From the NCBI GenBank assembly GCA_963843555.1, contig CAWJKV010000005.1, positions 32,001 to 96,000 of the forward strand: DNA of 64,000 nt, read 5' to 3'. The notes beneath the pieces were generated by a model. The model made no database searches. It was not told the origin of the DNA and worked only from the letters and a program-made list of their open reading frames with translations. Shown here piece after piece: positions 5,123 to 10,758 of this stretch. This stretch comes from an uncultured Methanosarcinales archaeon (GTDB lineage: Archaea > Halobacteriota > Methanosarcinia > Methanotrichales > Methanotrichaceae). A program made the position numbers and the translations under genes. The first letter of the stretch is position 1, and each line of letters starts with the position of its first letter.

Positions 5123-6356
5123 TTGGTATCTATTTCGAAAGGGTTATTTGCTGATTTATTAGCGCAAGGAGGCATATTTCAGTCCAGAGATGTCCTGCGT
5201 CCTACTTATACGCCAAGCGAACTGCCTCATAGGAAACGAGCAGATCAACGGCCTGGCATCTGTTTTAGTTCCTGCATTAAGAGGAGAAACCCCCTCCAAT
5301 GTTCTTATCTATGGAAAAACCGGTACCGGTAAAACTGCAGTTGCCAAGTACGTAGGAAAAGAACTGGAAGAAGCAAGTTTTGGAGATATGAAGTGCACAG
5401 TGATCTACATCAACTGCGAGGTGGTAGACACTCAGTACAGAATTCTGGCTCATCTTAGCAAGACACTTTGATAAAGAGATCCCAATGACCGGCTGGCCTA
5501 CAGATCAGGTCTATGCAGAGTTCAGAAATGCAGTGGATGAAGAAAAACAAGTTGTCGTGATAATGCTGGATGAAGTGGACAAGCTGGTGAGAAAGGGAGA
5601 CGACGTTCTTTACAACCTCTCCCGTGTAAACTCTGATCTGCTTCGTTCCAAGGTCAGCATCATCGGCATATCCAATGACCTCAAGTTCACAGAGTTTCTA
5701 GATCCAAGAGTAAAAAGCTCTCTTGGCGAGGATGAGATCATCTTTCCGCCTTACAACGCCGAGCAGATTAGGGACATCCTGGAACAGAGAGCCAAGCTCT
5801 CCTTCTAGTCCAGGTGTTCTTCAAGAAAGCGTCATACCATTATGTGCTGCTTTTGCGGCCCAAGAGCATGGAGACGCTCGTAAAGCTCTGGATCTCTTGC
5901 GCATATCCGGAGAATTGGCCGAAAGAGCTCGCTCTGCTAGTTGTAGCTGAGGATCATGTGCGTTCTGCTCGAGAAAAGATTGAGCAGGACAGAGTAGAAG
6001 AGGTTATCAAGACTCTGCCCACTCAGTCCAAACTGGTGCTCTACAGCATTGTTCTATTAGAGGAACAGGGAACAAGAAACATCACCACCAGTGCCGTTTA
6101 CAACATGTACAAACAACTCTGCCCTCTGGTTGAGACCGACTTTTTGACCCATCGCAGGATAACGGATCTCATTGCAGAGCTGGATATGCTGGGCATATTG
6201 CATACGATTGTGATCAGCAAAGGTCGATACGGCCGGACCAAAGAGATCACGCTCAGTGTTTACTCCGGCAAGCTCAAGGCTACGCTGCAACAGGATTACC
6301 GGCTGAAGGTCTTGGGCAATGTCAATGTGCCTTGCCAGGCCCGGCTGGGCCTTTGA
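5123..6356 (+). CDS. cdc6: Orc1/Cdc6 replication initiator (about three apparent frameshifts)
   Basis: Fragments give L.PTYTP.ELPHR, Walker [50 protein letters not shown]. Confidence 0.95.
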
Positions 6357-6392: not shown

Positions 6393-6635
6393 CTAAAAAC
6401 CCAGGCTCAGGAAATGGAGCAAAATCACCAGGAAGGCGCCCAGGATCCCGCCGATGCCACAGATGAGTATGACCAGCCAGCTGTAACCGATCTCCAGGCC
6501 GGCGGCGTAATTTGCGAGAAAAAGAATCAACAGCCCCATAGCTGCATTCATGATGAAATTCTTGATGGATCTCAGGATCAAGAATGCACCGAAGACTATA
6601 ACCAATATTAATACCACAAGCCCAGCTTCAGTCAT
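6393..6635 (-). CDS. Small membrane protein, BofA-like
   Basis: Three hydrophobic segments with N..MGLLIL and ICGIGGILG. Confidence 0.7.
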   Translation of the reverse strand: MTEAGLVVLILVIVFGAFLILRSIKNFIMNAAMGLLILFLANYAAGLEIGYSWLVILICGIGGILGAFLVILLHFLSLGF

Positions 6636-6687: not shown

Positions 6688-9600
6688 TCATACCTTGAAA
6701 GACTCCATCTCGCTGGCCAGGCGGTGCAACTCCTTAGTGTCCAGGGATAGTGGATCTACATGCACCAGCAATATGGCGTTCTTCAGGGCGATCTCATCCC
6801 TCTGGGACTGAACGAACCGGAGCACAGTCTCATAATTGCTCTGAGTTATGAGATAACCTAGGCCTTCCAGCAGGATGACTGGATAGCTCGCCTTGCTGAG
6901 GAAATCGGAGATCATACTGCTCAGGCGGGGGAAGTTCGTTGGGTCCACAGACCTGTATCCCGGCTCGCTCTTTTGCGTCAGCCATATAACAGTCTCTGCG
7001 GGCACATTATATCTCTCATACAGAGTCTCGGGATTGTAGCGGCTCAAGCATAAGCCCTCCATGCCGTGCATTACCAGTTCGCTGAAGATCTCCAGGATCT
7101 TTTGCGGCTTTTCTTCCTCAATGATATAAGTGGTTCCTGGTATGAGAGATATCTCGTAGGGACTTCGACCGTAGCTTTTCATGATACCTTCCAGGGCATT
7201 GATGGGGTCGAAGGCAGTATCATGCGTTTTGATGATTCTGGCCAGCCTCCTCAAAGCAACGAAGAAGCCGCGTCTCGTCAGCACCAGCCCACACCTGATC
7301 CTTAGCTGCTGCAAAGAGCCCAAAGCATCTTGCATATCCGGTTCGCAGGCCGTGCTGGAGTCATCAGAGATCGGTTCGGCTCTGGCAGGGCTCTCAAAGA
7401 ACCCGCCTGCAGCTATCATCTCATTAGTGACAGTCACCACCTCTTTTCTCACCTCTTCGCTCAAATTAGAGAGCATAGCCTCGGAGAATACCCGGAAGAG
7501 GTAGGCGGAGAGGGGACCCAAAGAGAAGATCAGCTCTTTGATCTCATTTACATTCGATGTCAAACTCGCATGGACAAACTCCGGCTTCTCCGCCAGTATC
7601 AAGTGCGTCTTATGGCCCAGGAGCTCCATCTGATAGACGAAGTCCAGCATCTCCCTCTCCGGAACCCGGCCCATGTTTTCGTTTATCAGTTGTTCGATAC
7701 TGTCAATGAGCACAATGCTGTTCTTGCTGGACTCGACAAATGCTTTTATGGTCATGAAAAGAAGCGGCAAATTTCGGGGCGAGATGTAGCGATCGCTTCC
7801 CTTCTCATCGCTCAGCTTTATAATGGGCGTCTCCTTGAAGCCCCAGCGAAGCCTCACATCTTCTGGAGCATAATGGGTTATGCATAGCCCCTCTACACCA
7901 TGGGTGATCTGATCGGTGAAGACTTCATAGGCAATCTCAGGCACGATATAGATCTTTCCCGTCTTCAGATCATAAGTAGGAAGCGTTGCCTTTGCTTCTT
8001 CTTTCACCGGCTTTACGGGCAAGTGGTCTTCTACAATCATCCTCGTGGCGGAAGGCCCAACTGAGCCGGTGAGCGTCTTCTCGAACTGATCCCACAGCTC
8101 CAGAAGTTGCTGTGTCTCAATCTTCTCCCGGCTGGTGCCGAGTTGTTCAAGGTAGTTATCGACCTGCATTCTTGCCGTCTCTTTGCCTATGTAACGCGCC
8201 AGCGTCGCTTCCAGTTCCTCTACTGTACCCTGGCGTATTACCCTGCGTTCATGGTCCGGAGCCGGTGCCTTTTCACGGCATGGGTTGACGAAACAATCGG
8301 CAATGGCTGCCTCTTCCAAACTGGGCTTCGTTATGAGCGATACAAGAACGTAAAGGCTGCAATTGACAAGAAGGGTCCAGTATACAGAGTTCGTCCAAGG
8401 GTCCAGGTCAAGCCCGAACAGATCCGTGGGCTTGAGGAAGGCGGCGCCAAAGGGTCCATCCTTGACCAAACTTGCCAGCGCTCCATTGTTTCCCGCCACT
8501 GTTGGAATGAGGGCGGTGTAGGCCCAGAGCAAGAAGCCTGATACCAGCCCAGCCATCGCTCCTTCCCGGTTGCCTCTCTTCCAGTACAGGCCGCCCAAGG
8601 CGGCAGGTGCCAGTTGGCTGGCTGCCAGAAAAGAGACGATGCCGATATCTGCCAGGATCTGGTATGCCACAGCGCGCGAGTAAAGATATCCCAGGACCAC
8701 TACAATAAGTATGTTTAGCCTTCTCGTGTTGAGGAGAATACCAGCAAGGTTTTTTTGCTTTTTTATACGGCCCAGAATATAGGGCAGCTCCAGGTCGTTG
8801 AGAAGCATGGTGCCTACAGCTACGGATTCAATCAGTATCATGGCGGTGGCAGCCGACATCCCTCCTATGAAGACGAAGAGTGAAAGCAAGTCCTGATTAT
8901 GGGTGTAAGGTATGGTTATTATGAAGGCATCTTTTAGGCCTCCCGTATTGAGGAGCAATCCTCCCCACGCGATGGCTGGTACGAATAGATTGATTAATAA
9001 GAGATAGAGCGGAAAGAGCCACATTGCCCTCTTGAGGTGCTTCTCCTCGCTATTTTCCACCACCATAACGTGAAATTGTCTGGGCAGGAATAAGATGGCG
9101 AAGAAGGATATCAGAGTCAGTGAGAACCAGAGGGGATACTCCACGTCCATGAGATCGGCATATGCCGGATTATGGCTGGCCTGATCAACCATCTGGTTCG
9201 TTATATTCCCATAGCCACCGAAGATGCCATAGGCCACAAAAATTCCTACCAGGAGGAATGCCACTAATTTGACCAGGGATTCAAAGGCCACCACGGCGAT
9301 CAGTCCCTCATGGCGTTCCATGGGGTCGAGATGGTGTGCACCGAAAATGACTGCGAAGGCTCCCAGGAGCAGGGCCACTACCAGCTTACTCTCCGCAGGA
9401 AAGCCCAGCAATATGTTCGAACCTGTCAGTATCTCAAGCGATGTGGAGATGGCGATGAGCTGCAGGGCCACATAAGGGGTCACCATGATAAGGCACAATA
9501 CCGCCACCACGGCGCCTATAGCATAGCTCCTGCCGTAGCGGAAACTTAGAAAGTCGCTGATTGAGGTGAGCCTGTTCTCTTTTGAGACGCGAATCATCTT

Positions 9601-9849
9601 GCGGATGACTATCCACCCCAAAGTCATGGCTAAGACGGGTCCCAGGTAGATGGGCAAAAACTCCAGGCCGGTTGATGCTGCCCTTCCTATGGAGCCGTAA
9701 AAGGTCCAGGCGGAGACATAGACGCATAGAGAAAGAGCATAAACATAGGGGTTGGCAACGATGCTCTTGCCCAGATGCTTCCGTTGATCGGCATAGCGGG
9801 CTATGGCAAAGAGCAGCAGCAGGTATAGGACCATGATGAGCAGAGCCAC
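6688..9849 (-). CDS. SLC5 (Na+/solute symporter-like)-STAC-DUF835-DUF835 fusion protein
   Basis: N-terminal ~500 aa CrbS/CbrA-like (YALSL.VY.SAWTFYGS.G.A, LTSISDF.S.RYG, PY.ALQL, AFES.VKL.AFL, FLPRQFHV.VVEN); STAC-like helical domain ~8035-8230; two DUF835-like domains (~7600-7960, ~6700-7140); no histidine kinase motifs. Confidence 0.85.
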   Translation of the reverse strand: MALLIMVLYLLLLFAIARYADQRKHLGKSIVANPYVYALSLCVYVSAWTFYGSIGRAASTGLEFLPIYLGPVLAMTLGWIVIRKMIRVSKENRLTSISDFLSFRYGRSYAIGAVVAVLCLIMVTPYVALQLIAISTSLEILTGSNILLGFPAESKLVVALLLGAFAVIFGAHHLDPMERHEGLIAVVAFESLVKLVAFLLVGIFVAYGIFGGYGNITNQMVDQASHNPAYADLMDVEYPLWFSLTLISFFAILFLPRQFHVMVVENSEEKHLKRAMWLFPLYLLLINLFVPAIAWGGLLLNTGGLKDAFIITIPYTHNQDLLSLFVFIGGMSAATAMILIESVAVGTMLLNDLELPYILGRIKKQKNLAGILLNTRRLNILIVVVLGYLYSRAVAYQILADIGIVSFLAASQLAPAALGGLYWKRGNREGAMAGLVSGFLLWAYTALIPTVAGNNGALASLVKDGPFGAAFLKPTDLFGLDLDPWTNSVYWTLLVNCSLYVLVSLITKPSLEEAAIADCFVNPCREKAPAPDHERRVIRQGTVEELEATLARYIGKETARMQVDNYLEQLGTSREKIETQQLLELWDQFEKTLTGSVGPSATRMIVEDHLPVKPVKEEAKATLPTYDLKTGKIYIVPEIAYEVFTDQITHGVEGLCITHYAPEDVRLRWGFKETPIIKLSDEKGSDRYISPRNLPLLFMTIKAFVESSKNSIVLIDSIEQLINENMGRVPEREMLDFVYQMELLGHKTHLILAEKPEFVHASLTSNVNEIKELIFSLGPLSAYLFRVFSEAMLSNLSEEVRKEVVTVTNEMIAAGGFFESPARAEPISDDSSTACEPDMQDALGSLQQLRIRCGLVLTRRGFFVALRRLARIIKTHDTAFDPINALEGIMKSYGRSPYEISLIPGTTYIIEEEKPQKILEIFSELVMHGMEGLCLSRYNPETLYERYNVPAETVIWLTQKSEPGYRSVDPTNFPRLSSMISDFLSKASYPVILLEGLGYLITQSNYETVLRFVQSQRDEIALKNAILLVHVDPLSLDTKELHRLASEMESFKV

Positions 9850-9860
9850 ATTGGGTCCTA

Positions 9861-10070
9861 TCAGTCGGAATTCCTCCTATCGAAAAGATAGAGCACGAGT
9901 ATGATAACCAGCCAGACCGTGGTTATGTATAGCAATATCGCAGGTACACCCATAAGGGCGAAGCCCTCGGCCAGGGTGAGCATGGGCCAGTTGAGCAGCA
10001 GCCACCCTAAGACGAAGAGAAAGGCCCAGAATTCTTTCAGGCCAAGGAGATCCCGGAAAGAGAGTTCCAT
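9861..10070 (-). CDS. Small two-helix membrane protein, CbrX/DUF3311-like partner of SLC5 proteins
   Basis: LFVLGWLLLNWP.L...MGVP.ILLY...VW.V.I pattern; 11 bp upstream of the SLC5 fusion. Confidence 0.75.
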   Translation of the reverse strand: MELSFRDLLGLKEFWAFLFVLGWLLLNWPMLTLAEGFALMGVPAILLYITTVWLVIILVLYLFDRRNSD

Positions 10071-10071
10071 G

Positions 10072-10758
10072 CTATAAACCCGGATAAATTACCAATCCTT
10101 TTACGGATATATCTACCGCACGCTTTCCTAAATGGTGGGATGTGCCGCACATCTTAAGAATCTCGATGGTCCTCCTTCTTGTAAAATTTATCTCTTCATT
10201 TTGCAGCAATATTATTCCGTCTGCGATCTGCGCTATAGAAATGGGGTACGGAGCTCCAGGCAGCGCATCCTCCGCCACCAGTGCAACCGCTTTTTTTGAT
10301 TTGATCAGATGAGATAGCTTTAGGAGAAAGCGCCAGTATTCATCTTTGAGCACATCTTCCAGAAAAGATAGATTCTCCATGACGATTCGAGCCGGTTCGA
10401 TTGTATCGATCTGCATCTCGAGCGCTTTTAGAAGTTCATCCGATCTTCCTGCCTTTTCCACTATGCCTTCCAGCTCCACGTAGCAGATCTCTTTGCCAAA
10501 GTACGAACTCTTCACAAACTCGTAACTGGAGGCGAAATTGAATAGCAGATCAGGCGGTCCGCCGAAAGTCAGGAGGTAAAGCCCGTGCTCCCCATGATCC
10601 GCACCTTTGCAGAGAAACTGAGTGCAGAGTGTGGTCTTACCTGCCCCCGCATCGCCTGCCACAAGAGTAATGGAGGGTATGGGAAGGCCACCTTCAATCA
10701 TATCATCCAGGCCTTGTATTCCTGTAGCCATCCTGTCTATAAAATTCAATCCTTTCAC
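10072..10758 (-). CDS. Single-domain KaiC/RAD55-like ATPase
   Basis: TGIQGLDDMIEGGLP, Walker A AGDAGAGKT, ADGIILL, RRTIEILKM.GT.H. Confidence 0.88.
   Translation of the reverse strand: MKGLNFIDRMATGIQGLDDMIEGGLPIPSITLVAGDAGAGKTTLCTQFLCKGADHGEHGLYLLTFGGPPDLLFNFASSYEFVKSSYFGKEICYVELEGIVEKAGRSDELLKALEMQIDTIEPARIVMENLSFLEDVLKDEYWRFLLKLSHLIKSKKAVALVAEDALPGAPYPISIAQIADGIILLQNEEINFTRRRTIEILKMCGTSHHLGKRAVDISVKGLVIYPGL

Follow-up and report, generated by a model that had tools for sequence, protein, structure and literature searches.

Organisation of the locus

The locus described here lies within a 64,000-nucleotide stretch of DNA (hereafter the window) from an uncultured archaeon of the family Methanotrichaceae (assembly GCA_963843555.1, contig CAWJKV010000005.1, positions 32,001 to 96,000 of the forward strand). 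Three co-oriented open reading frames (ORFs) on the minus strand, all with open frames, code for a KaiC-like protein of 228 residues, a hairpin peptide of 69 residues and a protein of 1053 residues, termed the transceptor below, in which a transporter-like SLC5 domain and a STAC domain are followed by two DUF835 domains. As read, the genes are separated by gaps of 1 and 11 bp. Their window coordinates, with transceptor residues counted from the GTG codon at 9849, are as follows:

10072..10758, minus strand: single-domain KaiC-like protein, 228 residues, matching PF06745; probable nucleotide-binding pseudo-ATPase, optional in Methanotrichaceae
9861..10070, minus strand: two-helix membrane hairpin peptide, 69 residues, with two hydrophobic segments; the CbrX counterpart by position
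6688..9864, minus strand: transceptor gene, SLC5-STAC-DUF835a-helical domain-DUF835b; 1053 residues from GTG 9849, 1058 residues from the probable CTG 9864
8305..9849, minus strand: SLC5 (SSF) membrane domain, residues ~1-515, from the 10ED alignment
8014..8232, minus strand: STAC four-helix domain, residues ~540-612, from the 10ED alignment, with four helices in the model
7576..7974, minus strand: DUF835 domain a, residues ~626-758, predicted inactive KaiC/RecA fold; PF05763 at 49.7 bits, above cut-off
7165..7557, minus strand: unnamed helical domain, residues ~765-895, between the DUF835 domains, without a Pfam match
6703..7152, minus strand: DUF835 domain b, residues ~900-1049; PF05763 at 129.8 bits, with structural matches

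A first-pass annotation, made from the nucleotide letters only, had reported three tightly packed genes with intact frames, and their order, strand and 1-bp gap were confirmed. However, an in-frame NTG codon overlapping the TGA of the peptide gene was found in 49/49 loci (30 TTG, 7 ATG, 6 GTG and 6 CTG), which makes it more likely that the peptide and transceptor genes overlap by 4 bp than that they lie 11 bp apart as reported. The transceptor gene probably starts at the in-frame CTG 9864, which shares 4 nt with the peptide TGA and gives a protein of 1058 residues. This arrangement can be likened to that of cbrX-cbrA, for which translational coupling is reported (PMC13022988). The transceptor gene is present as a single copy in its own genome and has a median ratio of non-synonymous to synonymous substitution rates (dN/dS) of 0.11. 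A scan of the locus for sigma-70 promoters and terminators, which does not cover archaeal promoters, returned matches at the level of chance.

A bacterial-type sensor unit joined to two DUF835 domains

Searches of the large protein against Pfam returned DUF835 in two stretches (E 1.3e-50) and SSF (E 4.5e-9), with no HisKA or HATPase at E<=1. Residues 3-614 align with the SLC5-STAC part of CbrA (PDB 10ED chain A, E 2.5e-89), including the GPS turn of STAC, and 10ED was the sole PDB sequence match at E<=1, which bears out the initial assignment of a CrbS/CbrA-type SLC5 domain and a STAC domain. A hydropathy scan gave 12 hydrophobic segments at its threshold, compared with 13 transmembrane helices in proteins of the CbrA/CrbS/RpuS kind, and the alignment covers the whole membrane part of CbrA. 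Residue G598 of STAC was invariant in the 62 rows of the alignment.

Both DUF835 domains scored above the PF05763 cut-off and they are homologous to one another (HHalign probability 99.2). Inspection found the Walker A motif GxxxxGK[ST] in neither. A model of residues 530-1053, built from the 62-row alignment (pLDDT 83, pTM 0.78), contains STAC as four helices, followed by two alpha/beta domains that flank a helical one. The top Foldseek match of this model was a two-domain KaiC (E 2e-6) with a TM-score of only 0.22, so the arrangement of the domains differs. By VIA-align, DUF835b matched PH0284 (Z 13.5, root-mean-square deviation 2.9, 153 aligned), FlaH (Z 12.8) and SSO2452 (Z 12.3). In the model, then, the DUF835 domains have the KaiC/RecA fold, and the earlier description of DUF835 as an inactivated KaiC-like domain agrees with this fold and with the missing Walker A motif. 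Profile comparison between the KaiC-like protein and DUF835 found nothing and the kinship of the two therefore rests on structure. The absence of an H-box and HATPase, also claimed at first, was upheld: the cytoplasmic part consists of STAC, two RecA folds and helices.

What the first-pass annotation omitted is the helical domain of ~130 residues (~765-895) between the two DUF835 domains. It is the fastest-evolving part of the protein and has neither a Pfam match nor a usable Atlas match, and a search of 340 genomes from elsewhere in the phylum did not find it. A second copy of STAC was considered here and ruled out (HHalign probability <=0.5). A conserved CEPDM motif, whose Cys835 is nearly invariant, lies in an otherwise variable loop of low model confidence and could possibly mark a site of modification or a site for a partner. 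DUF835b is about as conserved as the SLC5 domain.

Distribution and origin of the transceptor

At a search threshold of E<=1e-20, the SLC5-STAC part was found in 101/105 Methanotrichaceae genomes, comprising all 64 good ones and all 16 genera; the four genomes without a match are 56-78% complete. A sample of 401 genomes from the phylum contained 13 matches, all in Methanotrichaceae, and 0/388 in the others. The full architecture was checked in 30 loci of the genus (one ended by the contig and one with an internal stop), and 20/20 loci from the 15 other genera contain a full-length protein together with the peptide. Outside the family, the cytoplasmic profile matched only single DUF835 domains, in 53/340 genomes of the phylum. 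We therefore regard the protein, on these sequence comparisons, as real, conserved and family-defining, belonging to the SLC5-STAC kind and being neither a histidine kinase nor an orthologue of CrbS. It would operate in the manner of a CbrA/CrbS transceptor.

Relatives were drawn from the top 150 representatives clustered at 50% identity. Two of these cover the DUF835 part and 148 cover SLC5-STAC only. Among the first 45 of the 148, which were scanned for domains, 41 carry signalling domains (kinase, SpoIIE, GGDEF/EAL, HD, PAS). Histidine-kinase domains predominate, with 2 SpoIIE, 3 GGDEF/EAL, 1 HD and 3 PAS only, and 4 contain no family at E<=1e-8. SLC5-STAC thus appears to be a sensor unit with exchangeable outputs. 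The named representatives are bacterial, from Desulfuromonadales, Deferrisomatales, Desulfobacterales/Desulfobacca, Geobacterales, Chloroflexota, Streptomyces and Thauera. Sequences from Methanotrichaceae form one long-stemmed clade (SH-aLRT 100), and the tree does not place its sister, and hence the bacterial donor.

The hairpin peptide is present in 29/29 loci of the genus that reach upstream and in the 20/20 loci of other genera. When a profile of the archaeal peptides was run against the upstream peptides of 4 bacterial SLC5-STAC genes, it scored 27-33 bits, and no shuffled sequence (500 for each) exceeded 10.5. Two more bacterial upstream peptides scored lower, and two bacterial loci were without such a peptide. 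A CbrX-like peptide (L199) scored 3.4 bits on the archaeal profile, with 34/500 shuffles as high, and 8.6 bits with 0/500 shuffles once bacterial peptides were added to the profile; no CbrX chain in the PDB was matched by the hairpin peptide. The first-pass name, CbrX-like peptide, is thus apt for its position and, by profile comparison, for homology to the upstream peptides of bacterial SLC5-STAC genes, but homology to CbrX itself is weak. From the distribution and the tree, we infer that the peptide and SLC5-STAC arrived together from bacteria. DUF835, by its gene neighbourhoods, is a native archaeal part, because REC-PAS-DUF835 or DUF835 genes adjoin KaiC-like genes in archaeal loci (L103-L107, L109). 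The idea that the locus was inserted between aspS and bofA as ancestral neighbours is unsupported, the two genes being far apart in 4/4 outside genomes having both.

The predicted ligand pocket

Residues of CbrA named in PMC13022988 were mapped through the 10ED alignment to Y44, S46, W48, T49, F64, I67, Y68, K194, S248, A251, R257 and F407. Across 28/28 orthologues 11/12 of these positions are invariant, with S46 in 27/28, and 7/12 are the same as in CbrA. The shared positions include Lys194, which occupies the Na2 site as K196 does in CbrA. The pocket and K196 of CbrA are described in the same paper, and a Lys at the Na2 site goes with proton coupling (PMC13022988).

Reference proteins of the CrbS, MxtR, RpuS and CbrA types were assigned by architecture and neighbouring genes, not by accession. 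CrbS/MxtR-like references match at 10-11/12 pocket positions, compared with 7/12 for RpuS and 8/12 for the CbrA orthologue. The MxtR-like references from P. aeruginosa and A. baumannii have Arg257 too, as does a CrbS-like protein of S. meliloti, whereas position 257 is His in RpuS and the CbrA orthologue. Moreover, the MxtR-like gene of A. baumannii adjoins a cation/acetate symporter gene. By residue matching, then, the pocket belongs with those of the acetate-linked CrbS/MxtR proteins and not with the CbrA/RpuS type. The host genome contains two acetyl-CoA synthetases above cut-off, and no acetate channel of the SatP/Ady2 type was found in it (82% complete). Separately, Wenzhouxiangella SLC5-STAC kinases (L093:3277-5049, L095:1652-3424) lie directly downstream of a 590-residue symporter gene that is ActP-like by eye.

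The adjacent KaiC-like gene is ancestral and optional

The 228-residue protein matches the KaiC ATPase family PF06745 (E 1.3e-31, 110 bits against a cut-off of 26.6). It falls below every NCBIfam cut-off for the FlaH/ArlH, CirA, PH0284 and SSO2452 families and scores 98 bits against a cut-off of 408 for the circadian KaiC model; it has a single domain, with AQI at the phosphosite residues in the alignment. Walker A is intact (GDAGAGKT). However, the catalytic EE is replaced by GG and the Arg finger motif reads KMCG, where KaiC has TFEE and LKLRG. Of 134 rows, 130 keep the Walker A Lys, 129 an acidic Walker B residue and 133 the finger Lys. In contrast, Glu was found in 0 rows at one catalytic position and in 6 at the other, and the Arg finger in 6. 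The catalytic Glu and the Arg finger are understood here in the roles they have in the KaiC/RecA literature. The name KaiC-like ATPase given at first therefore holds for the family and Walker A but not for the catalytic residues. The gene is under purifying selection (median dN/dS 0.13, 75 pairs), which rules out pseudogene decay and, together with the missing catalytic residues, leads us to read the product as probably a working nucleotide-binding pseudo-ATPase.

Contrary to the expectation that the three genes would be co-conserved, the KaiC-like gene was found in only 60/105 genomes of the family (40/64 good ones, 14/16 genera), against 101/105 for the transceptor, and it is missing from the near-complete genomes G005 and G026. 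Where present, it is tied to the transceptor locus, adjoining it in 58/60 genomes. Of the two exceptions, G010 reflects a contig break and in G091 the neighbouring gene on the contig matches genus g24, so that this contig may be misbinned. Among 29 loci of the genus, presence of the gene changes at least 7 times on the tree, and copies in G062, G066 and G108 are truncated or remnant. Its occurrence in 14/16 genera at the same position rules out a late single gain, and by this distribution the gene is ancestral in Methanotrichaceae and has been repeatedly lost. An optional gene without catalytic residues means that output through a KaiC ATPase cannot be the general mechanism. The proposal that a bacterial input had been rewired to an archaeal KaiC output is thus retained as far as SLC5-STAC and the peptide being joined to DUF835, and not for that output.

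Relative to SLC5, DUF835b evolves at 1.09x in the absence of the KaiC-like gene and 0.85x in its presence. The ratio of branch lengths between lineages that lost and kept the gene was 0.74+-0.09 for DUF835b and 0.58+-0.03 for SLC5, with 1.9% of bootstrap pairs reversed (40 by 25 replicates; the partial copies L126 and L128 counted as lost). DUF835a showed no such rate shift. These rates hint that the KaiC-like protein touches DUF835b and that DUF835b has another job too. Prediction of a complex between the KaiC-like protein and the DUF835 tandem scored 0.00 in two runs, which is evidence neither way.

Other KaiC-family genes

The host genome (G000) contains two further KaiC-family genes. One is a second single-domain KaiC-like gene, which keeps one catalytic Glu, Walker B and a KMRG Arg finger, and is found outside the window as follows:

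G000:C5:148897-151423 (L149): second KaiC-like ATPase (148897-149631), 7 bp before a glycogen-synthase-like glycosyltransferase

The gene was found in 98/105 genomes of the family, and it precedes the glycogen-synthase-like gene in 18/18 loci. Its fold and co-occurrence make this ATPase the lead candidate for a constant partner of the transceptor. Judged by gene order, the pair may possibly also be in itself a KaiC-type system controlling carbon storage.

The other is a double-domain KaiC with intact catalytic motifs, followed by a gene that is KaiB-like by eye (G000:C2:58504-61025), and it is patchy in relatives. Elsewhere, L107:2287-5566 (G019) holds an operon that encodes REC, a PAS-histidine kinase, a stand-alone DUF835 protein and PadR, together with a KaiC-like protein whose Walker A reads GTLKS. 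This further DUF835-KaiC module occurs in some Methanothrix genomes and was not found in the host genome.

A putative transceptor signalling through protein contacts

Taken together, these data are compatible with a transceptor for carboxylates, coupled to protons and signalling by way of protein contacts, a scheme which as a whole we judge to be evenly balanced between right and wrong. A single transfer from bacteria would have brought it into Methanotrichaceae at the base of the family, where it was then kept as a core gene. The hairpin peptide would pack on the SLC5 domain as CbrX does, and the two would bind a short monocarboxylate, most likely acetate, cycling with a proton via Lys194. 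STAC would relay the movement of SLC5 to the cytoplasmic tandem of inactive KaiC-fold domains, which would resemble a CI-CII protomer of KaiC. As the operon has no kinase or hydrolase residues, the signal would leave by changed protein contacts, most likely RecA-type subunit contacts of DUF835b with a KaiC-family protein. The KaiC-like protein of the operon would be an optional nucleotide-binding modulator and the constant effector would be encoded elsewhere, the lead being the KaiC-like ATPase that precedes the glycogen-synthase-like gene. Proton coupling, the direction of the signal and every binding partner are parts of this scheme that we infer. Acetate as the ligand falls a little short of an even call, and a link of the effector to glycogen synthesis is improbable. 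We would likewise give little weight to the scheme in its most complete form, a phosphorylation-free pathway by which the family senses acetate, its only growth substrate. Here a bacterial transceptor would have been grafted onto the KaiC network of archaea when the family arose; its pseudo-KaiC tandem, anchored in the membrane and switched by the ligand, would serve as a subunit to capture or release the glycogen-coupled KaiC-like ATPase, with the operon pseudo-ATPase tuning it by ATP/ADP.

Several observations weigh against such a transceptor. In Pseudomonas, a CrbS/CbrA chimera followed its kinase part and deletion of STAC had little effect (PMC5715377), so that the SLC5 domain may not set specificity. 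In our quick tree, CrbS/MxtR/RpuS rows form a separate clade (99) within a group (97) that excludes the archaeal clade. Arg257 is the majority state (145/148 near representatives) and therefore points away from histidine and towards a carboxylate, without singling out acetate. Restriction to one acetoclastic family amounts to one origin and not to repeated association, and Methanosarcina acetivorans, which is also acetoclastic, had no DUF835 match in a control search. As for the partner, the second KaiC-like gene is also found in 20/29 genomes of another family and is hence older than the transceptor, was not found in 3/3 genomes of genus g24 that have the transceptor, and is not linked to the transceptor locus. 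Lastly, the rate shift of DUF835b is small and borderline, spanning ~150 columns in one of four domains examined.

Three other explanations have to be set beside the transceptor scheme. The strongest of them, doubtful as we consider it, reverses the direction of control: the protein would be mainly a high-affinity uptake system whose transport is gated by the energy state of the cell through the DUF835 tandem and the KaiC-like protein, with no downstream output. An operon without an enzyme or DNA-binding output, invariant transport residues, the failure to find a SatP/Ady2-type channel and a single-copy core gene in an acetate specialist would all fit such a system. However, the SLC5-STAC relatives examined bear signalling outputs, uptake by CbrA does not by itself give growth on histidine (PMC13022988), the host genome has three other SSF genes and the supposed gate subunit has been lost repeatedly. 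Rather less can be said for a sensor of something other than acetate, be it another small acid, an amino acid or the proton motive force via Lys194, with the acetoclastic hosts an accident of a single transfer; we find this unlikely. The position of the archaeal clade outside the CrbS/MxtR group speaks for it, and histidine, acetate and pyruvate are the signals to which characterised relatives respond (PMC9100948). Moreover, in a 2026 preprint (10.64898/2026.09.07.749794) the MxtR signal is described as unresolved and membrane energetics are brought into consideration. The same preprint nevertheless cites thermal-shift evidence of short-chain fatty acids binding the Acinetobacter orthologue, the pocket best matches acetate-linked proteins, and retention in 64/64 good genomes suggests a signal central to the family.

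The least probable explanation, which we think very unlikely, is that the three genes form a dedicated system whose output runs of necessity through the neighbouring KaiC-like protein, an ATPase that would be switched by hydrolysing ATP or by phosphorylating itself. The ancestry of that gene, its adjacency, the purifying selection upon it and the slightly faster evolution of DUF835b after its loss are as such a system would have them. It is hard to reconcile, though, with the presence of the gene in only 40/64 good genomes and its absence from near-complete ones, with its repeated changes of presence and its truncated or remnant copies, with the loss of the catalytic Glu and Arg finger, and with DUF835 domains that are conserved where the gene is lacking.

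Relation to known systems

CbrX-CbrA of Pseudomonas (10ED; PMC13022988) resembles the archaeal system in its SLC5-STAC unit, the Lys at the Na2 site, 7/12 pocket positions and an upstream two-helix peptide overlapping the start codon. In contrast, the archaeal protein has no PAS, DHp or CA, its operon no response regulator, the pocket differs by A56>T, C74>I, F248>S, S251>A and H257>R, and the similarity of the peptide to CbrX is weak. The SLC5-STAC hybrid kinases CrbS/MxtR and RpuS share the same input unit, and CrbS/MxtR also share the PRQFH motif and 10-11/12 pocket positions (PMC5715377, PMC9100948). The archaeal protein differs from all three in its separate deep branch, its archaeal host and a tandem DUF835 that replaces PAS_7-HisKA-HATPase-REC.

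On the archaeal side, REC-(PAS)n-DUF835 proteins encoded beside KaiC-like ATPase genes are known (PMC5847659) and were reportedly also described by Makarova in 2017. Such proteins have a C-terminal DUF835 (<=34% identity to domain b) and an adjacent single-domain KaiC-like gene, as here. Unlike them, the protein described here takes its input from a membrane transporter and has two DUF835 domains with a helical insert, and its adjacent KaiC-like gene is of another type (23-27% identity where matched) that has lost the catalytic residues. Single-domain proteins of the FlaH/ArlH, CirA, PH0284 and SSO2452 kind have the RecA/KaiC fold in common with the system (Z 12.3-13.5 for DUF835b against PH0284, FlaH and SSO2452). 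They differ in that there is no archaellum link here and DUF835 has no P-loop. A regulatory role for ArlH by binding a membrane machine is reported (PMC10983859).

Sepulveda and Lupas reported STAC signalling proteins to be absent from Archaea and listed kinases and GGDEF among their outputs (PMC5715377); the protein described here contradicts that absence. A stand-alone archaeal STAC is known (PMC4834066), and the review PMC7918813, in its available text, gives some archaeal SSS-kinase predictions and no DUF835. REC-DUF835 is listed in PMC5847659, which labels DUF835 an inactivated KaiC; STAC, SLC5, SSF and symporter go unmentioned in the available text and searchable supplements of this, the DUF835 paper that was found (one file not covered). 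The architecture is not described in the literature searched, which did not cover Makarova 2017 (mBio) or Korycinski 2015 (JMB), either of which may list it. In databases the orthologues are named 'DUF835 domain-containing protein' or 'Na+/proline symporter'. The novelty is the combination of two known modules, a bacterial SLC5-STAC and an archaeal DUF835.

Methanothrix-type archaea carry much of the flux from acetate to methane in digesters and sediments, and to our knowledge no acetate sensor has been described in them. A single-copy gene found in 64/64 good genomes of the family and 0/388 others is a strong candidate for such a sensor and a marker of the family. It would also give the proposed archaeal DUF835/KaiC-like signalling network a defined membrane input. 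Moreover, it suggests that SLC5-STAC can couple to an output without enzyme activity, which bears on what STAC transmits in bacteria.

Neighbouring genes

Downstream of the transceptor gene lies one further co-oriented gene:

6393..6635, minus strand: BofA-like small membrane protein (PF07441, E 3.4e-9), 52 bp downstream of the transceptor gene

The gene is syntenic in 26/30 loci of the genus and in 17/20 loci of other genera, and is also found in 4/5 genomes of another family without the transceptor. It is an older archaeal gene, usually syntenic, and a putative operon member that might serve as a second accessory subunit. Further along the window, a cdc6/orc1 gene at 5190-6356 (plus strand) is broken into three ORFs by frameshifts, and acs copies on contig C17 of the same genome are likewise broken. 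These breaks are probably indel errors of the assembly and not biology.

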